Below are positions 3,244 to 18,343 of a DNA stretch of 20,000 nucleotides, in pieces; the first letter of the stretch is position 1; every line of letters starts with the position of its first letter. Source of the DNA: an uncultured virus (IMG/VR IMGVR_UViG_3300021401_000002) (Duplodnaviria > Heunggongvirae > Uroviricota > Caudoviricetes); IMG/VR virus record IMGVR_UViG_3300021401_000002, one strand, 5' to 3'. Made by a program: the position numbers and the translations under genes. Under the pieces are notes generated by a model. That model saw nothing but the letters and a program-made list of their open reading frames with translations. It searched no databases and had not been told where the DNA came from.

Positions 3244-3453
3244 ATGCCCAGACCTCGCAGCGATAACACTCAGTCGATGACGATCAAGATGCCTCGAAAG
3301 TGGGTCGAGGACGCAAGTGGCTGTGCCAAGCGGGCTACGGAGCATGGATTTGCAACGGTTACACGCACCGACATCTTTCGATCTGCGCTGCGAAAAGGTC
3401 TCGACGCAATCATCGAAGAGCAGCGCCAAAAAGAGAAGAGGCGAGAAAAATGA
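3244..3453 (+). CDS. Ribbon-helix-helix (CopG/Arc-like) transcriptional regulator (69 aa)
   Basis: RHH pattern: beta strand SMTIKMP, helix A, then helix B TRTDIFRSALRKGL. Its stop overlaps the cas12 start (ATGA at 3450-3453). Confidence 0.7.
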   Translation: MPRPRSDNTQSMTIKMPRKWVEDASGCAKRATEHGFATVTRTDIFRSALRKGLDAIIEEQRQKEKRREK

Positions 3454-5315
3454 CGATGATTCGAGTCTACAAGTACGGTCTTCTTCGACCCATTCAGAAC
3501 GAAGCGCTCGTACGGGCGCAGCTTCGTGCCAAACACGACTATCGCAACACGCTCATCGAAATCGAAAGAGGTCGACGTACGGCGATGAGAAACGTCGAGG
3601 AGCAACATTCTGAGCTTGCTACGGCGATGGCAGCTTCACGTGCAGCGCTCGTGGAGCTGGAAGAGTCACGCCAAGCCATTCGCCTTGCTCGCAGCAAGTC
3701 TCGCAGCCGATCCGAAACAAACGTGATGAAAGAACGCGTCAAACAGGCCCGAATCGTGAGACGTACGACATCGCAAGCACTCTATGATTGCCGAGCGCGT
3801 GTTCGTCCAGAAATGATTTCTGCACGCGATGTCATCAACGAACGCGCAGCCGAGCTCGTTCGTGGAGCCCGAGCGCTCACGACGTCGTATTGGGGCTCGT
3901 ATCTACTTGCCGAAGACGAGGTCAAGGCCGCTGCGAAGCAGCCGCTTTACGACGATTCTACGCCGAATGATCCTCGCTTTGAACGCTGGACTGGCGAAGG
4001 TCAAATCGGAATGCAAATTCAAAATGGCATGACGCCTGGCGAGGTGCTCAGCTCTGAAGATACACGACTTCGCATCAGCGAACCGAATTGGAACGACGGC
4101 AAGCACGTGCGAACTCTTCGCACTCTTTCGCTACGTGTCGGATCAGAAGGACGCAAGCCAGTTTGGGCATCTTGGCCTCTCATCATGCATCGACCTCTTC
4201 CGCCCGCGGCGCGTATCAAAAGATGCAACGTTTCTTTGCGCCGCCACAGCTCGCGTGAGATATGGTCCGCCGAGCTTACGATTGAATGCCCGAACGTAAC
4301 GAGCGCAATTCGCGAAGAGCACGGGTGGGGACGCGGCGGCGGAGTCGAAGGAGCCGTGGGAGTCGACATCGGCTGGCGTGTTGTCACGGATGACGACGCA
4401 GGTCTCCGTGTGTGCGCCTACGCATCAGAAGACGGTCAGGACATTGGTGAGCTTCGTCTTAGTCCTCATGAGATTACGCGTTTACGCAAGGCAGATGAAA
4501 TCAGGAGCATTCGAGACAAGAGGTTTGATGCGATTCGTCTCATTGTGCGAGACAAGCTTGCGACGCTCGAAGTTCCAGCGTGGCTTTCCATGTCGACGCT
4601 GCATATGCATGTGTGGCGTTCACCGGCTAGGCTTGTCTCGCTCTCGAAGCGTTGGAGCAAGGAGCGCTTCGCAAACGATGAAGAGGTCTTCGATTTGCTC
4701 GAGTCTTGGAGGTACTGGGACAGCCAGCACTACCAATGGGAATGCGATCAGCGCACCAAGGCGCTGCGACGGCGACGCGAAAAGTACCGAGTGTTCGGGG
4801 CTCGGCTCGCGGAAAAATACGAGGTGCTGGTACTCGAAGATCGAGCAGAAGATGACCGAACCAAACCCATGGATCTCCGAAAGTTCGCCCGCCGAGCTCA
4901 AACGGAGATGGAACCAGAGAACGAGACGGCAAGGTCAAACAGACACCTCGCAGCAACAAGCGAGCTACGCCAAGCCCTCGAAGAGGCTTTTATCTCCCAC
5001 GGCGGACGTGTCGAGCTTGCGCCATGTGAAGATACAACGCGAACGTGCACAGCGTGTGGCGTCGTCGATCGTGGATTGGATGCGGAAACTGAAATCGATG
5101 TAACGTGCTCGTCGTGTGGTGCCAAGCAAGACCAGGACGTGCGTGCGAGCAACAACCTTTGCGAGCGGTGGCGTAAAGCGCAAAATGCCGGAGGCGCTCG
5201 CAATGCCAAAGCGGCGAAATCAGAGGGGAGATGGAAAAAAGCAAGACGTCTTCGGACCGAAAAGCAGCAGCGAATGGGAACCTTTCGCAATGCCAGCGAT
5301 AACAGCGCAGAATGA
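3450..5315 (+). CDS. cas12m: Compact type V CRISPR effector, Cas12m (V-M, formerly V-U1)-like, TnpB superfamily (621 aa)
   Basis: RuvC-I AVGVDIGWR (D306), RuvC-II VLVLEDR (E463), zinc finger CTAC...CSSC and RuvC-III DQDVRA (D563). Motifs that recall Cas12m: LRAKHDYRNTL, a long helical REC insertion, YWGSY, RWTGEGQIGMQIQ, MHRPLP, WRSPARL. It sits 19 nt from a CRISPR array. Confidence 0.85.
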   Translation: MTMIRVYKYGLLRPIQNEALVRAQLRAKHDYRNTLIEIERGRRTAMRNVEEQHSELATAMAASRAALVELEESRQAIRLARSKSRSRSETNVMKERVKQARIVRRTTSQALYDCRARVRPEMISARDVINERAAELVRGARALTTSYWGSYLLAEDEVKAAAKQPLYDDSTPNDPRFERWTGEGQIGMQIQNGMTPGEVLSSEDTRLRISEPNWNDGKHVRTLRTLSLRVGSEGRKPVWASWPLIMHRPLPPAARIKRCNVSLRRHSSREIWSAELTIECPNVTSAIREEHGWGRGGGVEGAVGVDIGWRVVTDDDAGLRVCAYASEDGQDIGELRLSPHEITRLRKADEIRSIRDKRFDAIRLIVRDKLATLEVPAWLSMSTLHMHVWRSPARLVSLSKRWSKERFANDEEVFDLLESWRYWDSQHYQWECDQRTKALRRRREKYRVFGARLAEKYEVLVLEDRAEDDRTKPMDLRKFARRAQTEMEPENETARSNRHLAATSELRQALEEAFISHGGRVELAPCEDTTRTCTACGVVDRGLDAETEIDVTCSSCGAKQDQDVRASNNLCERWRKAQNAGGARNAKAAKSEGRWKKARRLRTEKQQRMGTFRNASDNSAE

Positions 5316-5334
5316 CAACTCTCTCCAGAGAGGA

Positions 5335-5962
5335 GTCTCAATGGCTGCGACGAGCCGTGCAATCGTCGACCGTGAGCGGCGCGACGGGCGGCACGACAGG
5401 TGCGGTCTGTCTCAATGGCTGCGACGAGCCGTGCAATCGTCGACGCCCAAGGACACGTGTACTTGGAATCCCTGCTGGGAGGTCTCAATGGCTGCGACGA
5501 GCCGTGCAATCGTCGACGCGCGCGGCACCGACGAGACGCTCGCGCACAGTTGCGTCTCAATGGCTGCGACGAGCCGTGCAATCGTCGACGCGGTGACACC
5601 TTTGCTCTCACCTTCGTTCGTGGGCTGTCTCAATGGCTGCGACGAGCCGTGCAATCGTCGACCTGCTGGCGGGCGCTGTGAGCGTACTCGTGTGGACCCT
5701 CGTCTCAATGGCTGCGACGAGCCGTGCAATCGTCGACCGCCGCAACCTGTGGCGCTCCCCAACGGCATCATCACGTGTCTCAATGGCTGCGACGAGCCGT
5801 GCAATCGTCGACGTCTCGTAGACGATCGCCCACTTGTACCTGCCCTCGTCGTGTCTCAATGGCTGCGACGAGCCGTGCAATCGTCGACTCCACGTGCTGA
5901 AGGCGACGATGCCGCCTGCGTACCGGGTCTCAATGGCTGCGACGAGCCGTGCAATCGTTGAC
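5335..5962 (+). CRISPR. CRISPR array with 9 repeats of 36 nt (GTCTCAATGGCTGCGACGAGCCGTGCAATCGTCGAC) and 8 spacers of 36-40 nt
   Basis: Repeats start at 5335, 5409, 5482, 5554, 5627, 5702, 5777, 5853 and 5927. Spacers are 38, 37, 36, 37, 39, 39, 40 and 38 nt and all differ. The last repeat has a C>T change (…ATCGTTGAC), consistent with + strand orientation. Confidence 0.98.
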
Positions 5963-6768: not shown

Positions 6769-8159
6769 GTTCCACCTGCCTGATGATATTCCTCTAGTAG
6801 CTTCACGAGACTCACGGCCGCCACTTTGCAAAAGTCGTCGAGCGTTTGGTGAATGACGATCCCCACGCCTGGATCACTTTGTATCATGGCGCCGAGCATG
6901 AGCGCCATGTGCGCAACGAGCGCAATGCCCTGATCCGACGCAGCGTCCTCGGAGCTCGACGCGTCTGCAATGGCATCCCAGAGCTGGAGCGGTCCGGGCT
7001 CGAGCGCCTCGCGGATCACGCCCTCCTTTCCACGAGCGCGCACGAGCGCGAAGAACGACGCTGTTTGAAGGGCCACCGAGAGCCGAAGCTTGTCGAGCTC
7101 CGACGGCTCGCCCTCCTCGACCTCTTCCGCCTCTGCCCCTACCTCTTCTGCCTCTGCCCCTACCTCTTCTGCCTCTGCGTCTTCGACCTTTGTGTCCGTT
7201 GGAACTTGACCAGACGCGGTCTCCGTCTTGGTCTCTGTTCCGGCCTCTGGCGACGTCTTCGGTTTTGCTCCGTTCACACCGTTTGCGCCATTCGTTTTCG
7301 GCTTGGAGGTTTTCGCTGCTCGCTTTTGCTCTTGATACCACTCGTTGAACTCGGGCGGCAGTGACTCGCCGCCTCGACGTTGCAACATCGACATAGCCAT
7401 GACCATGAGCTTTGGACCGTGCTTTTCGAGGCCGGCGAAAATGCTATCGACAATCTTTTTCTTGAACGCTTCGGCCTCCTCGTCTGCCTTCTCCTTTTTC
7501 TTCTGTTCGTATTCGAGACCTCGGGCTGCAATTTCGATTTCACGAACAGCGGTCTCTTTGTCCGTATACGCCTGACGGACGCTGTCATGGTGAACCTCTC
7601 GCTTTTGGTAGATGTCGAGAAGATGCATCGTTCGATCGTCCAAACGCGCTTCTTTCTTAGAGACGTATTCCAAGACCGCAGGCATCAACCGTTCGGCGAT
7701 GCCTGCCTCGAACTGGGCATTGAGACCGCCAGCACCAGCAGCGCCACCATACATTCCCATGGCCCGACTACCGGGACCAGACAAGACCATGGATTGTGTC
7801 TCTTGTCCGCCGTACACCTTGAACATGAAACGAGAGCGGTTGTCGTGGTCTTTGGAATGGAACGCGAGCTCGTAAATGATGTCGCCTGCGGGCTGAAACG
7901 AAGCATCGTGACAGCAGACTCTCTCGACGATACGAACGACGGAATCGAGTGATATGTGAGGCCCTCGAAGATCTCGCTCGAACCACTCGCCTACGGGTTC
8001 GTCACGCATTCCGCCCTTGAGGCGGAGAGACATTCGAATGATCTTGCGCAGCGCAAGCTCGGCCTCATCGCCGACGAGCGGTTTCGAGTAGCAGAGCGCA
8101 TCGTCGATCGCGTTCGAGACCTGCCTCTTCGTTTCGGCTGAGAATTCCAGGGTTGCCAT
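6765..8159 (-). CDS. Hypothetical protein (464 aa) with a coiled-coil segment and an acidic repeat linker
   Basis: Long ORF with a charged helical central region and AEAEEVG repeats. Confidence 0.8.
   Translation of the reverse strand: MATLEFSAETKRQVSNAIDDALCYSKPLVGDEAELALRKIIRMSLRLKGGMRDEPVGEWFERDLRGPHISLDSVVRIVERVCCHDASFQPAGDIIYELAFHSKDHDNRSRFMFKVYGGQETQSMVLSGPGSRAMGMYGGAAGAGGLNAQFEAGIAERLMPAVLEYVSKKEARLDDRTMHLLDIYQKREVHHDSVRQAYTDKETAVREIEIAARGLEYEQKKKEKADEEAEAFKKKIVDSIFAGLEKHGPKLMVMAMSMLQRRGGESLPPEFNEWYQEQKRAAKTSKPKTNGANGVNGAKPKTSPEAGTETKTETASGQVPTDTKVEDAEAEEVGAEAEEVGAEAEEVEEGEPSELDKLRLSVALQTASFFALVRARGKEGVIREALEPGPLQLWDAIADASSSEDAASDQGIALVAHMALMLGAMIQSDPGVGIVIHQTLDDFCKVAAVSLVKLLEEYHQAGGT
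7120..7178. repeat. 21-nt in-frame tandem repeat (about 2.8 copies) encoding AEAEEV(G)
   Basis: The unit ACCTCTTCTGCCTCTGCCCCT is repeated within the 464-aa gene. Confidence 0.85.
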
Positions 8160-9811: not shown

Positions 9812-10018
9812 ATGGCTGTCGTCGGACTTCTCACGCTCATCGTCTGCATCCTCGGCCTCGTCGTCTATCTGTCTCTCACCTCCTTCTCTAGAGCGACCTT
9901 CACCGACGTCGCTCGCATCTGTTTTGCGGCTGGGCTCTTGGCCTTCCTCATGAGTCAGGGCGCCTCGAGTTGCTCCATGGGCACCAGCGGCGCTTCCTCG
10001 AGCAGCCAGCATCGATAA
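9812..10018 (+). CDS. Small two-transmembrane-helix protein (68 aa)
   Basis: Two hydrophobic stretches, VVGLLTLIVCILGLVVYLSL and ICFAAGLLAFLM, with AGGT upstream. Confidence 0.65.
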   Translation: MAVVGLLTLIVCILGLVVYLSLTSFSRATFTDVARICFAAGLLAFLMSQGASSCSMGTSGASSSSQHR

Positions 10019-10034
10019 GAAGAGAGAAAGAGGC

Positions 10035-10238
10035 ATGCCGCTCATTCATCGCTGCACCCAAGCCGCGTTCGAAAAGAACGTTCGCACCCTTCATCACGAA
10101 AATCGCACGAGGCGAAGAAAGCGAAGCGCGAAGCAAATCCTCGCTATCGCCTACTCCACCGCTCGCCGCGCCGCCGCGTTCTACAGGAAGAGACCCGCGT
10201 GGCTATTCCGCCGTGCCACTCACCGAACAACGCGATGA
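10035..10238 (+). CDS. Small basic hypothetical protein (67 aa)
   Basis: A purine-rich SD (AAAGAGG) precedes the ATG, and the stop overlaps the next start (ATGA). Confidence 0.6.
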   Translation: MPLIHRCTQAAFEKNVRTLHHENRTRRRKRSAKQILAIAYSTARRAAAFYRKRPAWLFRRATHRTTR

Positions 10239-10771
10239 CCTCTTCATTTTCTTCTCCGTCACCCGACCTGGAGTCCGTGTACTACTCGCCCAGAAGAGCT
10301 CGCCCAGTTCCGAACCCTCCGCGTGCGACGTTCGACGCCGATCGCATCATCAGCGGAAAACCTCCTACTCAGCAAGGATCGCTCTGGCAAGGCGCTGCGA
10401 GCACCGTTCACACGGCCGACATGCACGGCTTCGACGTCGTCGTACTCTGCGCGCAAGAGTTCCAGCCCATCCTTCCGCGTTCCATCGAGGTCATTCGTTT
10501 TCTGAGTGACGACTGCGAGCTCACGATGCCCCATCTCAAGGAAGCAGCCTTTGTCAGTGGAAAGGTCGAGCGCCGCGTACGAGCCGGAAAACATGTACTA
10601 TGCACGTGTTTTGCGGGTTTCAACCGCAGCGGGCTCGTCGTCGCGCTCGCGACGATGAAGCTCACGAAGAAGCCCGGGCGTGAAGTTGTAGACCACATCC
10701 AACGCAGACGCGAAGGCGCGCTTTGCAACGAGAGCTTCGCTCGAGCGCTCCGCAGGCTGAGAGCGGTTTGA
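10235..10771 (+). CDS. Dual-specificity / tyrosine phosphatase family protein (178 aa)
   Basis: P-loop CX5R signature VLCTCFAGFNRSGLVVAL, an upstream acid loop FLSDD, and a C-terminal IQRRREGALCNESF. ATGA-coupled start at 10235. Confidence 0.85.
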   Translation: MTSSFSSPSPDLESVYYSPRRARPVPNPPRATFDADRIISGKPPTQQGSLWQGAASTVHTADMHGFDVVVLCAQEFQPILPRSIEVIRFLSDDCELTMPHLKEAAFVSGKVERRVRAGKHVLCTCFAGFNRSGLVVALATMKLTKKPGREVVDHIQRRREGALCNESFARALRRLRAV

Positions 10772-10772
10772 C

Positions 10773-11093
10773 GTGAGCGCTGAAGAAGAGATCGATAGCT
10801 ACCTTGCACGGTCGCCGATTCAAGACTTAGAAGACTTAGAAGACTGGGACAGGAAATACTTCCAGCACTTCATCCAACGCCTACGCGACCATAAAGGTCC
10901 TAAATTATTCATCGTCGACTTCCAAGAAGTTCCCATGCTTATGAAGATACCTGGATGTCTCAGAATGGAAGGAACGCATATCGGAAACTACCGCATTTAT
11001 ATCTTCGGCGTACCGTGCGAACTTGAAATGCCAACTTGGATTAGCCAAGGACCGGACCGTCCTGAATACATCATAAAAGAACGCAAACCATGA
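10773..11093 (+). CDS. Hypothetical protein (106 aa)
   Basis: GTG start 1 nt after the previous stop, and ATGA overlap with the next gene. Confidence 0.65.
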   Translation: MSAEEEIDSYLARSPIQDLEDLEDWDRKYFQHFIQRLRDHKGPKLFIVDFQEVPMLMKIPGCLRMEGTHIGNYRIYIFGVPCELEMPTWISQGPDRPEYIIKERKP

Positions 11094-11716
11094 GCGCCGC
11101 CCAAACAACTGATAGTAGTCTCAATGGCTGCGACGAGCCATGCAATCGTCGACGCGACTGGGTCGATGTCGGGAGCGCTAAGCAGCTCGCGCTCTACGAA
11201 GCCGATCCCAACTACTCGGGACGCCCAGTCGTCTACGACTTCGAAGACCAAGAGGTCGAGCCTCAAGCGATTCTTCCAGGGCTTCGCAAGGATGTGGGGT
11301 TTGCGAAGAGGTCTTTCCGGAAATGGAAGGACGACAAGGGCCAAGTCATCGAGAAGGCCCCGCGCTACAAAGGCGCGACTTTCTACTCAAAACTCATTCT
11401 CCTTCCGACCGATGTGCACGGCAAACCCCTCAGGCTCGGCAACTTCCAGGTGATGCTCCACGGGAGCAGCAGCTACATCGTCTGCGACTGGTCCAAGCCG
11501 CTCGGCGAAAACGTCGTCTACGTCTCGTCGAAGGGATTTCGCGACGCCTGCATCCTCTGCGGCATGTTCCATCGCTGGGAGCGCTGGCAAGGACCGCTCC
11601 GTAGAAACCAATCACGACACAAGGCCGTCTTCGGCCGCGAAGCAAAACCGAAGCCGCCGCCTCCGCCCGAAGCACCCGATGCCGACGATCTTGGCGAGGA
11701 CGTCACTTTGCGCTAA
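11090..11716 (+). CDS. Hypothetical protein (208 aa) whose 5' end contains a CRISPR repeat copy
   Basis: ATGA-coupled start. The frame stays open through the repeat, which reads as SLNGCDEPCNRRR. Confidence 0.7.
   Translation: MSAAQTTDSSLNGCDEPCNRRRDWVDVGSAKQLALYEADPNYSGRPVVYDFEDQEVEPQAILPGLRKDVGFAKRSFRKWKDDKGQVIEKAPRYKGATFYSKLILLPTDVHGKPLRLGNFQVMLHGSSSYIVCDWSKPLGENVVYVSSKGFRDACILCGMFHRWERWQGPLRRNQSRHKAVFGREAKPKPPPPPEAPDADDLGEDVTLR
11118..11153 (+). repeat. Solitary CRISPR repeat, 35/36 identical to the array consensus
   Basis: GTCTCAATGGCTGCGACGAGCCATGCAATCGTCGAC, with a single G>A at repeat position 23. No second repeat lies at spacer distance on either side. Confidence 0.97.
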
Positions 11717-11745
11717 GTTTTGGACAAGGAGTCTTCGATACTAAC

Positions 11746-12098
11746 GGGAGCGAAATGGTTTCGACAGTGAGAGGAAGATCCCATCTGCGTATGAGCGGCG
11801 CTCGATCCGGTCTGACCAATCGAGCAAGCCCAATTGCGAACGACAACGCAATCGCGAACGCGGCCTAAGAACCGCTTCGCCATCAATGACGTAGACGACT
11901 CGGTATCGTCATTGGTGTGAACCCAACAGAGTCACCATTACCCATTACGAGCGCGAGTCTCGCAAAACCTCGCTGGTGGACGGTGAAAATCGGGAAACCG
12001 ATTCAGCCCCTTCTGTCGGTGGAGCCAATCACCGAATATGTACGTAGATGATGGGATACGAAACTTGCTGGACCTGGGTTCGATTCCCAGCGCTTCCA
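11746..12098 (+). ncRNA. ssrA: tmRNA (one-piece, about 353 nt), tag peptide (A)ANDNAIANAA
   Basis: The 5' end GGGAGCG-AAATGGTTTCGAC pairs with the 3' end CGCTTCC-A, giving a G3·U alanine-identity wobble. T-arm CTGGG-TTCGATT-CCCAG. Tag ORF at 11836-11868: GCG AAC GAC AAC GCA ATC GCG AAC GCG GCC TAA. CCA is not encoded. Confidence 0.95.
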
Positions 12099-12297
12099 CT
12101 AAGTTGTAGAATACAAATAACCTTGAAGTACTTCTTCAAGTCCGTGAAAATTTGGCAGACCTTTTCGGCCGTCGGGACGAATCGTCAAAGAGCAGAACCT
12201 GACGCAGAGGACTTGCCCATTTTCGATCGGCTGTGGCATACAGGTTACTCGCCTTTCACGCGTCCGATACGCGAACGCGGACTGACAATACCCACAG

Positions 12298-12336
12298 AAA
12301 AAAGGCCCACTGGCTCCGCGACGAGCACAGTGGGCC
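12298..12336 (-). terminator. Intrinsic terminator-like hairpin with a U6 tail on the minus strand
   Basis: GGCCCACTG-GCTC/GAGC-A-CAGTGGGCC stem (12304-12336) preceded on the + strand by A6. Confidence 0.5.
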
Positions 12337-12348
12337 AGGAGAGCGTTC

Positions 12349-12975
12349 ATGCCGCTCGACCCGTGCAATATACAGTCTTCCTCTTTGGCGTCAACACCTC
12401 TCGTCTCCTTCGATTCCGAAGCCAAGAGCGAGGTCAGAGCCAAACCCAAAGGCAGAGCAAACGGCAAGCTCAAGGTCAACGGCATTCACAAGAACGGCAT
12501 CCACGGCAACTCGACGCCGATCCCATACGTGCCCGTCGAACCGCGGCCGAATTCGAAAGCTCCGCCGAGCAACGGCATAAAAGCCTCCTCCACAGGTAAG
12601 TGTTCGAGCTGCGGGCGCAAAAACGTGCTCGTCTCGATGCCGCCGATGTGCCGCTGCATCGACCATTCCACTTGTGAGGAGGTTCGAAAGCTCATCGGCC
12701 TCATGCGCTCCGGGAAGCCAATCCCAGTGACGAAACGCGCCGTTGTCGTCACGAAGAGACACGGTGTCCCGTACTACTTGAAAACGGTCTATTATAAGAC
12801 GCGCGAGCTCGTCGCGGGCGAAATCGTGAACGCTCCCACCGCCAATCGCATCGTCGAGAAGACGATCGGCGAGGCGCTCGAGCTTGTGCGCGAGAAGAAC
12901 GAGGCGACGAAGTTCCCGCCCGACAAGGCCAACCAGCTCGCCGCCATCTGGGGCGCCGTGGCGAAGGAGGTCTAG
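12349..12975 (+). CDS. Hypothetical basic protein with a Cys-rich motif (208 aa)
   Basis: SD AGGAG upstream and a CSSC...CRC...C motif. Confidence 0.7.
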   Translation: MPLDPCNIQSSSLASTPLVSFDSEAKSEVRAKPKGRANGKLKVNGIHKNGIHGNSTPIPYVPVEPRPNSKAPPSNGIKASSTGKCSSCGRKNVLVSMPPMCRCIDHSTCEEVRKLIGLMRSGKPIPVTKRAVVVTKRHGVPYYLKTVYYKTRELVAGEIVNAPTANRIVEKTIGEALELVREKNEATKFPPDKANQLAAIWGAVAKEV

Positions 12976-13469: not shown

Positions 13470-14507
13470 TTGAGCGTCTCGAACCGCGCTCGCCTTCAAC
13501 GCCTTGCCCGTGAGCAAGGTAGCAAAGCCGCGGCAGCGCGCGCACTGAAAGTCTCCGCGAGCGCCGTACGTCGATGGCTCGAGCGCGGCGTGCCCGATGC
13601 GGTCAAGACCCTCCTCAAGCGCAAGACCAAGAAGTACTACGAGCCGCCGAAGCCGAAGGCCAAGACGAAGGCCAGGGCCAAGGCCAAACCTCAACAGGCG
13701 CAGTCAAAAGCCTCTGCCAAAAAACTGTCAGCCAAAGACAGTTTCATCCTCAAGTCACTTGAGCGTAACCACCTCCAGCCGAGTACTCGAAAAAAGTACC
13801 TCAAAGAGCTGAGCGCCAACGCACGCAAAGTCCTCGCAGCAAAAACACCGTCGGAACCAAAGACTAAGCCAAAAAAGAAACTCACCGAACAAGACCTCTT
13901 CATCCTGAGCTCGTGGAGCGATCTCAGCGAAGACGTTCAGCAGAAATATTTCAAAAAGCTCTCTCCGCTGGGCAAGGCACGCATTCGAAAGCAGGAACGC
14001 GAACATGCCAAAGAACTCGAACAAGACGAGCGAGCCCGAGCAGCAGCGGAAGAAGAACGAAGAAAAATACCGACTCCTGAAAGGATGCTGCGGGACCTCG
14101 ACAATGCACTCAATGATGAAGCCTGGAAAGCGATTCGAGAAGAGGTTCGATTCGACAAGCACATCACTGAGCCAATAGTAATTCAAAAAGACGAAGACCT
14201 TGCAGAAGCATCCATAAAAGCTTCCGTGATCCCTGATGAAAACCGTACCGTCAGAAACCCAAATCGCTTTTACACTGTAATCGCAGCTGTCACTCAATAC
14301 CCACCTGACGGGGACTACAGCCAAAAACCTGTAAAAAGCAAAACGCCTCTTACCATGTTCTATTTCAGTACAGAATCTGTGAATTCGGAAGACAAGCTCC
14401 CCGAAGCTATTGCAAAAGCCATCAACAACATTCGCGGCATGCTTCCAGGAAATGCACCCATCGCTATTGTGGGTACGCACGTGAGAATGGCGCGGGCAAA
14501 AACATGA
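13470..14507 (+). CDS. Lys-rich protein with an N-terminal HTH and an internal duplicated module (345 aa); candidate terminal or replication-initiation protein
   Basis: HTH AAAARALKVSASAVRRWLERG. Its stop overlaps the polB start (ATGA). The TTG start is uncertain, and the function is inferred from position only. Confidence 0.7.
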   Translation: MSVSNRARLQRLAREQGSKAAAARALKVSASAVRRWLERGVPDAVKTLLKRKTKKYYEPPKPKAKTKARAKAKPQQAQSKASAKKLSAKDSFILKSLERNHLQPSTRKKYLKELSANARKVLAAKTPSEPKTKPKKKLTEQDLFILSSWSDLSEDVQQKYFKKLSPLGKARIRKQEREHAKELEQDERARAAAEEERRKIPTPERMLRDLDNALNDEAWKAIREEVRFDKHITEPIVIQKDEDLAEASIKASVIPDENRTVRNPNRFYTVIAAVTQYPPDGDYSQKPVKSKTPLTMFYFSTESVNSEDKLPEAIAKAINNIRGMLPGNAPIAIVGTHVRMARAKT

Positions 14508-17500
14508 GAATAAGCCGCCTCCTTCGTCCGTTCGAACCCGGACCAGACCGCGAAACCGTTGCAGCCGCTGCCGACATCGAAAGCAAAAAACCTCTCTCAG
14601 AAGAGATGGGCTTCGAACGACCCTTCATGGTTGGCGTTTACGTAAATGGGCAATACAAAAGCTTCTTCGATGAATTGCATCTCAACCCAAACGATCCAGA
14701 GCGTGCATTCAAGGATGGTGGCTGCGTGCGTGAGTTCTTCAGGTGGCTAACGGAGTCGCCAGAAGGACGAAAACTTCAATATCGAGCGCGTAGCAAAAAA
14801 CATCCAAAGGTCGTCATCTACGGACACAACCTCGGAGGGTTCGATGCCCTTCATTTCCTCAGATTGTTACGTAGACCAGAGTACGCCAGAGACTTCGATG
14901 TTCGTATCATTGCCTCAGGCTCTCAACTGCTAGAGCTTGAAATCACTGAACGTGACTTCAAAGTAGAAAACGAAGATCGACCTTTCGATGATGACGAAGA
15001 TGATTCCGCGCCTGTAGCAGACAAGGAAAAACAACCCAAAAGGCGTAGACTTCGTAAGTGGGTATTCCGAGACTCGATGAGACTCATGCCGGGCTCGCTA
15101 GATTCGATTGGAAAGAAGCTGGTACTAGACACGCGTAAAATCAAAATGAACGAATCTCTTGGCGGTCTTTCTACTCCTACCAAAGAGAGAAAAGCGTGGG
15201 AAGAATACAACAGTGTAGACTGCAAAACGGTAGTAGGGCTCGTGGATGAACTACGAAAACAACTCGACATATTGGGCGGTCATCTCAAAATGACACTCCC
15301 ATCTTCATCGATGGACTTATTTAGACGCGAGTACCTAACACGATTCCTCAAAGCCGAGGTCATAGACGGAAAGCCTAATCCTTTTCATGGGAAACCAGGA
15401 ATTCCTCGCGAAAGACACTTCCCCGGATGCCGATGCCTCTGTGGAATGTGCCGCCAGGAAAAATGCTTCAAAAGTTGCCCGAACGCTCAGCAAGAAAGAC
15501 CTCCTTGTCCCGCAGCACCTTATGGGTGCCTACACGCATGGCTTTCGATCTCTCCAACCGGCGCTCGCAAGGGTGGACATACGGAAGTGTTTCACCATCA
15601 AGAAAAGGAAGGAAAACTCAGATACTACGACCGCAACTCGAGCTACGCCGCCGCAATGACGGAGCCGATGCCACTCAAGCTTCAGTACTCCTTCGGACCT
15701 GGACGAGGACCACAGACACTTGAAGAGTGCAAAGGGTATGCAGATGATGGACTCATTGGATTTGTAGAGGCCATCGTCTATATTCCAGAAACTGTCAATA
15801 TCCCTCCACTGGCAGTCATCTACGATGACAAACTAGTTTTCCCAGTGGGAACCTTTTATGGGCGTTGGGACTGGTGCGAGCTAAAACACATAGAAGAAAT
15901 TGGAGGGCACATAGTTCTTATTCACCGAAGCGTTTGGTATCTATCGTCTCCGTTGATTAGATCGATGATGGAGGACATATTTGCAAAACGAGCGGATGCC
16001 AAAGCAAAAAATAATAAGCCCATGTCTGAAACGTGCAAATTAGTAGGGAACTCTTTGTACGGAAAATTCTTGATGTCCCCCGAACGAGATGAGCTTTTCA
16101 GTGCTCCTATCGGAAGTGAACCAGAGGGCGCCCAAGCGGTATCACCCGAAGAACTCGCTTACGCCAAAGATGACGAGCCCATCTTATGGCGCAGACCAAA
16201 ATACAACGAAGCTGATTACTTCTTGCCGCACATCGGATCTCACATCACCGCACTCGCCCGTGAAGCCCTGTGGCTTCAAATGCAAAAGGTCGAATCACTT
16301 GGTGGTCGAGTATACTACTCAGACAGTGTCACTGGTGACCGTACAACCATAGTTCGCTCGCCGCAAAACCGAGTGATAATCGAACCAATCCAGAAATTGT
16401 GGGAACGATTCAAGGCTGACAAAATCCCAGCAGAAAAAGAATTTGCCGTTACTGATAATTGGCAAGCGCTTGCAATGACCTCCGACGGCACACAGGGATG
16501 GTTTCCACTAAAGCAAATTATTAGACACCAAACCCACAAGACGACGTGGCTAATTTCAAATAAGCAGGGCCAAACATCTGTAACCACAGATCATGGCATT
16601 ATGTGTGACCCCAGAACCGCAATCGTACCAGAAAAATTCGTTGCAAATGGTGCCAACTTTATCAAACTCAAAGCTACACCATCAACAAGAACAGATGAAA
16701 CGATCGACCTGTTTGAATTTCTGAAAGACTTCAGTAGCAACAAATATGGCAATATAACAAATCTAGAGTTTGAAGCCCACGACGATTACATAACCATAAA
16801 GGGCTGGCGAACCATCGGTGGAGAAGCGATAAAAGCGAACTTCATCATGAATCAACCACTCACGATTACTGCTAAACAAGTCGTCGAATTAGCCAAGAAA
16901 TCCGGAATCAAAACCACAGAGAAATCCGTTATCAGTACGCGCAGTCGCATCAAAAAACACGGAGCGCGATCCTCTAACGCCAACGACGATGCCCACCGAG
17001 GCATTCATGGGGAAGTAAGATTCAAACGGTTCTACCGCCCAAATACCCCAGAAATCGGTGCACTCTTACGCCTACTTGGCGCTTACATTTCAGAAGGAAG
17101 CGCCAGCTTTCCTAACGAGAAGGGAAATCGTTGGCTCTTTTCAATTGCTCAAAACCGCCGAGAATGGCTCGAAAATTTACTTCACGACATGGAAATCATC
17201 GCGCCGCATTCGAATGCCAAGATATATGAGACATCTCGCGACGTCGAAGCTGGCAAACCAGGAAGCGGAATGTTCGCACTACGCTCCGGCGCAGCTCCAC
17301 TCTCATGTTTTTTCGCAGCACTTGGCGGGCGACGATCCGACGGAAAGAAGCTGCCATCATTCGTATACGACCTGACCGCGACTGACGCGATGATACTCTG
17401 GGAAAAGCTTCTAGAAGGAGACGGTCACAGAATACTGTCAAAAAGAGGAGGTGAAATAATCGAAACTGGTCAAGTATGCTACACGACTAAATCCCAAGAA

Positions 17501-18343
17501 CTAACGGCTGGACTCTCATATCTGCTAGATCAACTCTCAATAGAGCACGCGATAAATTATCGCGCGGACAAAAAAGTTTGGTCGCTTAGAACGAGGCCTG
17601 CCGGTTCTGGCAGAACCAGAAAAACCACTCACATAGAGATAGAGCAGAACCAATCAAAATATGTTTATGACCTAGAAGTTCAAGGGGCTCACACATTCGT
17701 TGATGGCGTCGGAAGAGTACTGCTCCACAACACCGACAGTGTGATATGCGATGTAGATATGCCATCGGGCAAGGAATTGGGCGAGTGGAAGCAGGAACAC
17801 GCGAACATCAGTCGCCTTGCCGGTGAATTCGATAGCCCAAAATCTTATAGGCTCACGTCACTTGTCAAAGGCGAATACTTCGAAGACCACCATGTCGACA
17901 CGTGTACGCTCAAAGATGAAGAAGACGAGAAGGGCAAACCCAAATGTCCAGGTTGCGCTACCGAACTCGTACACATCAAGGGACTACACAAAAGCAAGCA
18001 CACGGCTGAAAACTTCGAAAAACTCAAACGTGGTGAAACCATTCGAGTACCCGATCAACCTCCTAAGCTTGGCGAGCTCATGGCCATCAACTTCAAGTCT
18101 TACGAGACCAAGAGCCGCGACAAGAGCAACCTGCGCTGGAGAGACGGCGAGAACGGTGAAGAAGTCATCAGCAAACGCGTTCGTCAGGGCAGGAACCCAG
18201 ATACCAAGGCCCTTGTCTTCAATGAAGACACGCCAACCATCTATGTCGAAGACGGTGAGGCTCGCGAAACTACCCAGCGAGTTGTCTTCAGCTACTTTCG
18301 TCGCTGGCGCGACCATGTCCTCAACGCCACCGCCTCAGGATAA
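14504..18343 (+). CDS. polB: Family B DNA polymerase, protein-primed type, intein-containing (1279-aa precursor, 810 aa after splicing)
   Basis: ExoI ADIES, ExoII HNLGGFD, FRDSMRL, ExoIII YNSVD, motif A YDRNSSY, a TPR1-like insertion (PPL...LVFPVGTFYGRW..EL), motif B KLVGNSLYGKF, motif C YSD|TDS, the KxY motif PKSY, and IKG. Confidence 0.92.
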   Translation: MRISRLLRPFEPGPDRETVAAAADIESKKPLSEEMGFERPFMVGVYVNGQYKSFFDELHLNPNDPERAFKDGGCVREFFRWLTESPEGRKLQYRARSKKHPKVVIYGHNLGGFDALHFLRLLRRPEYARDFDVRIIASGSQLLELEITERDFKVENEDRPFDDDEDDSAPVADKEKQPKRRRLRKWVFRDSMRLMPGSLDSIGKKLVLDTRKIKMNESLGGLSTPTKERKAWEEYNSVDCKTVVGLVDELRKQLDILGGHLKMTLPSSSMDLFRREYLTRFLKAEVIDGKPNPFHGKPGIPRERHFPGCRCLCGMCRQEKCFKSCPNAQQERPPCPAAPYGCLHAWLSISPTGARKGGHTEVFHHQEKEGKLRYYDRNSSYAAAMTEPMPLKLQYSFGPGRGPQTLEECKGYADDGLIGFVEAIVYIPETVNIPPLAVIYDDKLVFPVGTFYGRWDWCELKHIEEIGGHIVLIHRSVWYLSSPLIRSMMEDIFAKRADAKAKNNKPMSETCKLVGNSLYGKFLMSPERDELFSAPIGSEPEGAQAVSPEELAYAKDDEPILWRRPKYNEADYFLPHIGSHITALAREALWLQMQKVESLGGRVYYSDSVTGDRTTIVRSPQNRVIIEPIQKLWERFKADKIPAEKEFAVTDNWQALAMTSDGTQGWFPLKQIIRHQTHKTTWLISNKQGQTSVTTDHGIMCDPRTAIVPEKFVANGANFIKLKATPSTRTDETIDLFEFLKDFSSNKYGNITNLEFEAHDDYITIKGWRTIGGEAIKANFIMNQPLTITAKQVVELAKKSGIKTTEKSVISTRSRIKKHGARSSNANDDAHRGIHGEVRFKRFYRPNTPEIGALLRLLGAYISEGSASFPNEKGNRWLFSIAQNRREWLENLLHDMEIIAPHSNAKIYETSRDVEAGKPGSGMFALRSGAAPLSCFFAALGGRRSDGKKLPSFVYDLTATDAMILWEKLLEGDGHRILSKRGGEIIETGQVCYTTKSQELTAGLSYLLDQLSIEHAINYRADKKVWSLRTRPAGSGRTRKTTHIEIEQNQSKYVYDLEVQGAHTFVDGVGRVLLHNTDSVICDVDMPSGKELGEWKQEHANISRLAGEFDSPKSYRLTSLVKGEYFEDHHVDTCTLKDEEDEKGKPKCPGCATELVHIKGLHKSKHTAENFEKLKRGETIRVPDQPPKLGELMAINFKSYETKSRDKSNLRWRDGENGEEVISKRVRQGRNPDTKALVFNEDTPTIYVEDGEARETTQRVVFSYFRRWRDHVLNATASG
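16325..17731 (+). mobile_element. Intein with LAGLIDADG homing endonuclease (469 aa) inserted in polymerase motif C (pol-c site)
   Basis: It begins SVTGD after YYSD and has block B VTTDHGI, LAGLIDADG-like blocks LLGAYISEG and LLEGDG, block F VYDLEV and a terminal HN followed by +1 Thr. It is visibly more AT-rich than most of the window. Confidence 0.95.

Follow-up and report, generated by a model that had tools for sequence, protein, structure and literature searches.

We analysed a 20,000-nt stretch of DNA (the window) from an uncultured virus of the Caudoviricetes (IMG/VR record IMGVR_UViG_3300021401_000002), which carries a clustered regularly interspaced short palindromic repeat (CRISPR) locus with a predicted Cas12m effector, and identified a solitary repeat unit of this system outside the array. 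The unit lies on the + strand at 11118-11153, matches the array repeat at 35/36 positions and comprises a complete CRISPR RNA (crRNA) scaffold. As judged from homologous sequences, it is read in frame inside a translated gene of 208 amino acids (aa). By analogy with characterised systems, we propose that the lone unit is a working Cas12m handle embedded in an mRNA, a reading to which we assign a probability of about 0.5. Solitary CRISPR repeats of phages are known as intergenic decoys against host systems. The present lone unit differs from these in being part of the element's own Cas12m system, in being translated within a protein, and in having parallels in other Cas12m phages, including one case in a head-protease gene. 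If the proposed reading is true, phages employ a DNA-binding CRISPR effector on transcripts of their own or to act on near relatives, and a crRNA can reside inside coding sequence.

The array repeat has 36 nt (GTCTCAATGGCTGCGACGAGCCGTGCAATCGTCGAC), and the distance from the last array repeat to the lone copy is 5191 nt, start to start. The Cas12m gene and the array are located 5.2-7.7 kb upstream of the lone copy on the same strand. A repeat search and a scan confirmed what a preliminary description of this DNA had reported, namely a 35/36 copy about 5.2 kb from the array in the same orientation, and a match of this quality and size within 20 kb cannot have arisen by chance. The sole difference from the array repeat is a G>A change at position 11140 (+ strand; repeat position 23), which falls on the third base of codon Pro17 (CCG>CCA) and is synonymous. 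The lone repeat runs from the second base of codon 10 to the first base of codon 22 of the 208-aa gene (11090-11716, + strand; homologues P0003-P0006 and P0127-P0134), so that its earlier placement in codons 10-22 of an ATGA-coupled open reading frame (ORF) is upheld. The same description had pointed out that this ORF stays open. It does, but openness carries no weight alone, because the repeat is free of stop codons in all three forward frames. In alignments A1 and A3 the body of the protein is conserved, Ser2 is invariant, and 9 of the 11 rows begin with MS, P0127 and P0133 being recorded as LS. Moreover, no in-frame start codon occurs between the repeat and the conserved part of the protein. 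Therefore, the repeat truly lies within the translated gene.

A chimeric join of array reads into the 208-aa gene, a concern of the preliminary description, can practically be dismissed, as the junctions are upheld by contigs that span the site. Two metagenome contigs (L002 and L003) are 100% identical to the window across the site over 3244 and 5297 nt, and a contig from DNA sequencing run X10 spans 11097-11422 with zero differences. The same N-terminus of the 208-aa protein has been recorded from 7 contigs plus P0129 and P0130. Additionally, because of the G>A change, the lone copy and the array have zero 31-mers in common.

The lone copy is a single repeat on a mobile element and lies outside any array. 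No second repeat copy was detected within 110 nt of it at up to 25% mismatches, and a degenerate second repeat behind it was searched for and not found. When 10500-12800 was scanned with the family model described below, the best matches other than the lone copy reached at most 15.7 bits. Two such weak matches were judged to be chance: one at 10617-10653 (15.7 bits), inside a dual-specificity phosphatase active-site motif, and one at 11738-11765 (13.9 bits), at the 5' end of a transfer-messenger RNA (tmRNA) gene. Loose contig ends from other organisms gather at 10617-10653 because the phosphatase motif is conserved. The repeat core had no match in IMG/VR or in species genomes, and 10700-12200 had none among GenBank phages or plasmids.

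The scaffold of the lone unit is predicted to be intact. By eye, the repeat forms helix 1 (ATGGC/GCCGT) and helix 2 (CGACG/CGTCG), and the 5' strand of helix 2 lies in the loop of helix 1, giving a pseudoknot. The crRNA of Cas12m2, as described in PMC10442227, likewise consists of a pseudoknot plus a stem; the first seven of its 36 scaffold nucleotides are disordered, and its guide-target duplex has 17 bp. We aligned 31 distinct Cas12m repeat types, one per locus (the window and 30 IMG/VR loci); five loci whose consensus was doubtful were excluded, as were four duplicates and a near-duplicate. Over the ten pairs, 86% of cells were paired (helix 2, 96%; helix 1, 77%), compared with only 28-43% when the partner was slid by 1-3 columns. 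Changes on both sides occurred in 9/10 pairs, and the covariation score was reached by 0/500 shuffles. The lone copy retains all ten pairs; its G>A change converts a U·G pair of helix 1 into U-A and shifts the stem energy from -8.3 to -8.7 kcal/mol. Under a covariance model of the 31 phage repeats, the lone copy scored 33.2 bits and 8/9 array copies 33.4. By this model, the lone unit is an intact, family-typical Cas12m scaffold.

Other Cas12m phages also contain lone scaffold copies. With 48 aligned Cas12m relatives as the survey query, 53 IMG/VR loci were retrieved, and a single protein retrieved one more. A separate 30-nt scaffold consensus was sought for each of these 55 sources (54 IMG/VR loci and the window), and copies with at most 6 mismatches were collected within 10 kb on either side. 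Thirteen sources had no array; the 42 with a scaffold correspond to 37 distinct loci (36 from IMG/VR and the window), or to 32 if five doubtful consensus sequences are dropped. Lone or paired copies, defined by at most 3 mismatches in 30 and a distance of at least 1 kb from any chain of at least 3 copies, were present at 7/37 distinct loci (the window, L029, L032, L041, L056, L062 and L065). One of these, L062, belongs to a whole 43-kb phage (G002) with ten copies outside its four-repeat array. Compared with the array repeat, the extra copies differ at 13/310 scaffold positions versus 15/50 positions of the 5' five-base tag (Fisher 1.8e-7), a contrast that points to selection on the part Cas12m holds or to copying of the scaffold alone. 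A head maturation protease gene of G002 (phrog_328, 5.8e-58; PF10123, 3e-38) contains one such copy at codon 10, 29 nt after its ATG. Homologues of this protease begin about 15 residues later, without that N-terminal stretch, and the sequence directly behind the unit is conserved native coding sequence. The distance from start codon to lone repeat is 28 nt in the window gene versus 29 nt in G002, in two unrelated phages. Relative to candidate start codons, other G002 copies are placed 2 nt upstream, 20 nt upstream, or 37-43 nt downstream.

Several further arrangements were seen among the surveyed loci. A 930-nt stretch of G002 immediately upstream of cas12m contains five units, which flank small ORFs. 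At 11137-11195 of L069 (G002), a lone unit is followed directly by an inverted partial copy of the repeat 3' half; together they form a long hairpin immediately ahead of the gene located before cas12m, and this hairpin could be a terminator or an anti-repeat. On the minus strand of G002 (42660-42585; L071), a mini-array of two repeats has a spacer that agrees with the genome of the phage itself, at 36311-36354 (L070), in 16 of the spacer's first 18 bases. About 0.002 such matches are expected per guide and 14 guides were tested, so that self-targeting by a binding-only effector is possible, and borderline after this number of guides. L056 carries two scaffold copies in tandem without a spacer immediately 5' of cas12m (9920-9990), which recall the auto-regulatory crRNA-like elements of other types. 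In L066, a degenerate scaffold copy (6908-6943; 6 mismatches in 30) lies between a tRNA-like 3' end and an ATG 7 nt downstream.

A second lone copy was found on a 1288-nt metagenome contig, L001. From the second base on it is identical to the lone copy of the window, including the A variant, and the flanks of the two copies show no homology beyond that of shuffles. The L001 unit is intergenic and antisense to its neighbours. It stands directly behind a promoter-like site, TTTCCA-16-TGcTACAAT (1 found versus 0.1 expected), in which the -10 hexamer has its last base at base 2 of the repeat, and transcription would accordingly begin near the first ordered scaffold nucleotide; a terminator-like hairpin follows about 95 nt behind the unit. 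A neighbouring protein of L001 is recorded letter for letter on a 129,016-nt contig, and its cluster mates are on a 124,887-nt contig. Contigs of 129,016 and 124,887 nt also hold the records P0001/P0007 and P0003, respectively, sizes that coincide with those for the L001 protein, and G+C is 0.55 in both L001 and the window. L001 is most likely another part of the same or a sister element. On this assignment, the element has at least two dispersed units that share a change found in none of the nine array repeats, and the shared A variant argues that the lone unit is no fresh copy of a present array repeat. The hexamer ACAACT, which the preliminary description had noted upstream of both the lone copy and the first array repeat, is indeed present (11105-11110 and 5315-5320), but its meaning as a shared leader motif did not hold: the offsets differ (13 nt versus 20 nt for repeat 1), the hexamer is missing before the L001 copy, and we regard it as chance.

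The known biochemistry of Cas12m suggests how the lone unit would work. Cas12m uses a single crRNA of 50-60 nt without a trans-activating crRNA (tracrRNA), trims the precursor in or before the repeat, and silences via DNA binding, not cutting, as reported in PMC11013384 and PMC10442227. Because the effector trims its precursor and needs no tracrRNA, a complete handle in the sense strand of an operon should be bound and trimmed. The effector encoded here agrees with the earlier suggestion that a guide can arise from a type V repeat and the sequence behind it. In our reading, a conserved gene recently received the handle within a short insertion close behind its start codon. The unit occupies the sense strand of an operon whose genes are tightly packed and would therefore be transcribed as part of the mRNA, and the neighbouring tmRNA was found in RNA libraries of two studies, which indicates that the neighbourhood is expressed. 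Cas12m would recognise and bind the pseudoknotted scaffold in the mRNA as in the array transcript, and would cut the RNA back on the scaffold's 5' side. This would separate the start codon, which lies 28 nt upstream, from the 208-aa reading frame, or bound Cas12m would block elongation, and the output of the gene would fall when Cas12m is present. The process would leave a Cas12m particle loaded with a fixed guide (GCGACTGGGTCGATGTC...), which is the sequence after the repeat and would act on a putative target. Its candidate 20 nt (11154-11173, + strand; GCGACTGGGTCGATGTCGGG) are placed by the repeat-then-guide architecture of crRNAs and the 17-bp heteroduplex in Cas12m2. The own DNA locus would be spared, as the end of the repeat occupies the position of the protospacer-adjacent motif (PAM). 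That the loaded particle is the selected product is possible, if on the unlikely side; control of the host mRNA as the selected product is less likely than the fixed guide, and unlikely in itself.

These arrangements may reflect a wider habit, in which Cas12m phages equip the 5' ends of genes of their own with the handle, either around codon 10 or immediately ahead of the start codon, so that the mRNA doubles as the precursor of a fixed guide taken from the gene's own 5' region. We hold this generalisation to be speculative and fairly unlikely. Because Cas12m binds DNA and need not cut it, the loaded particle could then silence the matching gene of co-infecting relatives without the insertion, sparing the copy of the phage itself, in which the repeat stands in place of the PAM. 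Alternatively, translation of the tagged genes could be made dependent on the level of Cas12m. In both cases, the arrangement would be a natural counterpart of engineered crRNAs embedded in mRNAs.

Several findings weigh against a working handle. At the protein level, alignment A3 delimits a lineage-specific segment at codons 3-29 (11096-11176, + strand; AAQTTDSSLNGCDEPCNRRRDWVDVGS), which replaces the eight codons DDPDIDPV of close relatives with a net gain of 19 aa. P0127 and P0128 (189 aa; 87-90% identical to P0001 and in the same 90% cluster) are without the repeat segment and read (M/L)SDDPDIDPVAKQLALY where the window protein reads MSAAQTTDSSLNGCDEPCNRRRDWVDVGSAKQLALY; the distant homologues P0004-P0006 (52-80% identical) are also without the repeat-coded stretch. 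Since the relatives are without the unit, these alignments indicate that the lone repeat is a young insertion, and the intactness of a young unit needs no selection. The residues behind the repeat, DWVDVGS, appear to be either diverged native sequence (DIDPV) or sequence imported with the repeat. According to the preliminary description, a repeat missing from relatives would indicate a neutral ectopic insertion, and in P0127, P0128 and P0004-P0006 it is missing; this leaves neutrality unsettled because the L001 copy shares the A variant and lone copies recur in Cas12m phages. The proposed guide has no target in the sequences searched. The 20 nt downstream of the repeat, for which the preliminary description had suggested a search for PAM-flanked matches, have no second match in the 20-kb window at up to 5 mismatches, the region upstream of cas12m included, no exact match in IMG/VR, and no match in L001 at up to 6 mismatches. 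For the L001 guide, too, IMG/VR contained no identical 20-mer. Upstream of the window copy, no promoter-like site was predicted. In two soil metatranscriptome runs (X17 and X18), exact RNA contigs cover only the tmRNA and 9985-10169, and none covers 11090-11716, which speaks neither for nor against processing.

Further points of this kind concern the scaffold change, the L001 link and the survey. The preliminary description was right that the G>A change preserves structure, but gave it too much weight: the altered pair is the weakest of the ten, being paired in 16/31 repeat types and unpaired in 15/31. The link between L001 and the element goes through coinciding contig sizes and cluster membership, not sequence overlap. 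A 183-kb Cas12m phage (G001, 95% complete) has zero lone copies at up to 3 mismatches in its whole record, and such units are therefore not obligatory. Among 14 lone units, 6 lie at +28 to +43 nt from a same-strand start (null mean 1.4, P 0.0025); this placement near gene starts favours a working handle, but the result relies on crude ORF calls with a first-start rule, takes 8/14 units from one phage, and may be inflated because ORFs extend through the stop-free repeat. The N-termini of proteins tolerate insertions best, which provides a neutral reason for the position of the units.

The strongest of the competing explanations combines these points: a repeat-bearing piece was copied into a permissive N-terminus by illegitimate recombination and is too young to have decayed, any binding of Cas12m being incidental. 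We take such a neutral insertion to be a serious possibility, though short of an even chance. It agrees with the relatives at 87-90% identity and all other homologues being without the unit, with the failure to find a target (window, L001, IMG/VR), an own promoter or an RNA contig (X17, X18), with the tolerant position of the altered pair, and with the tolerance of N-termini to insertions. A weak hint in its favour also comes from a contig of run X14, which fits 10968-11098 with 2 differences and then diverges, 7 letters over, as would be expected from a near-identical strain without the insert. Neutrality fits less well with four other findings: the unit has the A common to the other lone copy and not the G of the array, and is thus no fresh array copy; lone units occur at 7/37 distinct Cas12m loci; the scaffold is far better conserved than the 5' tag in G002; and the layout of 28-29 nt after the ATG of a conserved gene is found in two unrelated phages.

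Alternatively, the unit could be a decoy of the RNA anti-CRISPR (Racr) type, or a titrator, that sequesters Cas12m without guiding it, whether this Cas12m comes from the element itself or from a competitor with the same repeat. Solitary phage repeats act as RNA anti-CRISPRs (PMC10651486), and the promoter-proximal, intergenic layout of the L001 copy is typical of them. Yet the element itself encodes the cognate Cas12m and a nine-repeat array, whereas the published Racr candidates, as presented in PMC10651486, are without associated cas genes and match the system of the host. The window copy also lies within a translated gene, and in type V a full scaffold followed by ordinary sequence gives a normal guide RNA, not an aberrant complex; we consider a decoy improbable. 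A role as a recombination site, in which dispersed repeats provide short homologies for shuffling or capturing cassettes among loci or related phages, is more improbable still. Such a role would suit the five G002 units that bracket small ORFs within 930 nt upstream of cas12m, as well as the variation of array content between samples (an X14 spacer is absent from the window), but the flanks of the element's two lone copies share nothing beyond chance, 36 nt is short for homologous exchange, and no rearranged form was seen in the metagenome runs examined.

The lone unit can be compared with several known systems. With the type V-M crRNAs of Cas12m2 and GoCas12m/MsCas12m, as described in PMC10442227 and PMC11013384, the system of the window shares a 36-nt handle followed by the guide, a stem plus pseudoknot, a 3' end in ...GAC, the lack of a tracrRNA, and an array that adjoins Cas12m. 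Unlike these, the window unit stands alone 5.2 kb off, has no following repeat to set its 3' end, and is translated.

Viral solitary repeat units (SRUs) are reportedly a theme of Faure et al. 2019. The SRUFinder survey (PMC10651486; Camara-Wilpert et al. 2023), by its own description, masked ORFs and sought SRUs in intergenic DNA only. The units treated there share with ours a single repeat on a mobile element, and the L001 copy is also intergenic and promoter-proximal; according to PMC10651486, those units are without cas genes and mimic the host system. In our case, the element itself bears the cognate effector and array, and the unit lies in a coding region. The window copy is not an intergenic small RNA with its own promoter, as a Racr is, whereas the L001 copy has this layout. 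A preprint by Shmakov et al. 2023 (10.1101/2023.03.03.530964) used ORF matches as a control, at least in the analysis it describes. With the crRNA-like regulators of that preprint, CreR (10.1101/2023.03.10.532045) and crlRNAs (10.1101/2024.10.29.618823), the lone unit shares an off-array repeat, a fixed guide for a non-immune purpose, and an effector that acts by binding. As described in these three sources, such regulators lie near cas genes or are intergenic, usually have a second degenerate repeat, and carry a spacer partly complementary to a cas or toxin promoter. By contrast, the window unit is in a gene, has no second repeat, and shows no such complementarity within the window.

Mini-CRISPR arrays borne by viruses reportedly serve in the conflicts of related viruses with one another (Medvedeva et al. 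2019). The lone units share with them a virus-encoded fixed guide; in G002 this guide is native head-protease coding sequence, which suggests by analogy that it would suit the targeting of relatives without the insertion. They differ from mini-arrays in having one repeat, not two; no target was found in the sequences searched, and the first 20 nt behind the repeat in the window are not clearly native. Our literature search turned up no report that Cas12m phages carry lone repeats. A preprint of September 2026 calls a myxophage Cas12m the first in a phage, and the words "solitary" and "standalone" are absent from its text.

The gene with the lone repeat is part of a tightly packed operon in the order phosphatase-like gene, 106-aa ORF, 208-aa gene, tmRNA. 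The 106-aa ORF (10773-11093, + strand) has no family match, and its stop overlaps the start of the next gene (ATGA). Homologues of the 208-aa protein were found only in metagenomes, with no relatives in IMG/VR and none in G001. The tmRNA gene (11746-12101, + strand; ARAGORN; Rfam RF00023, 108.5 bits) begins 30 nt after the 208-aa gene on the same strand. Exact RNA contigs of this tmRNA (tag peptide ANDNAIANAA) occur in two soil metatranscriptome runs from different studies and cover 11757-12017 and 11759-12096. Therefore, either the element is active in soil or the tmRNA is stable there.

By homology, the effector encoded in the window is Cas12m and the CRISPR locus is type V-M. The cas12m gene (3450-5315, + strand) encodes 621 aa from the ATG at 3450; the listed ORF opens earlier, at GTG 3300, whereas the recorded protein P0007 (621 aa) begins at ATG 3450. 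Among solved structures, the best match is 23vw_A (Cas12m; E 2.9e-57), followed by Cas12m2 8hhl (3e-24). Pfam detects a TNB domain (5e-09), and the RuvC positions are D306, E463 and D561/D563. No cas1 or cas2 was seen in the window, and a single-protein search of species genomes returned no relatives of this Cas12m. The longest contig bearing both the Cas12m and the 208-aa protein of the window has 129,016 nt, which indicates a large element. IMG/VR virus contigs with Cas12m relatives reach 406 kb, and a large phage is therefore the likeliest kind.

The array (5335-5962, + strand) begins 19 nt 3' of the cas12m stop and is made up of 9 repeats (36 nt each) that alternate with 8 spacers of 36-40 nt, with repeats spaced by about 72-76 nt. 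Neither the spacers nor the guide match elsewhere in the window (up to 5 mismatches) or in L001 (up to 6 mismatches), and the array region gave only a chance-level match among GenBank phages (E 0.7). The terminal repeat (5927-5962) is altered at one base, on the 3' strand of helix 2 (the pseudoknot), scores 27.9 versus 33.4 bits with the family model, and looks like a typical decaying end repeat. A repeat-spacer-repeat contig from run X14 carries a 37-nt spacer that is absent from the eight spacers of the window, and arrays with this repeat thus vary among samples. In another locus (L004, 11820-12530), one array contains two repeat forms, distinguished from each other by a compensatory pair of helix 1 (GGCT...AGCC versus GGCC...GGCC).

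Farther downstream in the window, 14504-18343 encodes a 1279-aa protein-primed family B DNA polymerase (PF03175) with a LAGLIDADG domain at residues 967-1025, which is probably an intein or an inserted homing endonuclease. In G002, a helicase gene (L069, 7488-10022) carries an intein (Intein_splicing and HINT domains, residues 141-417).

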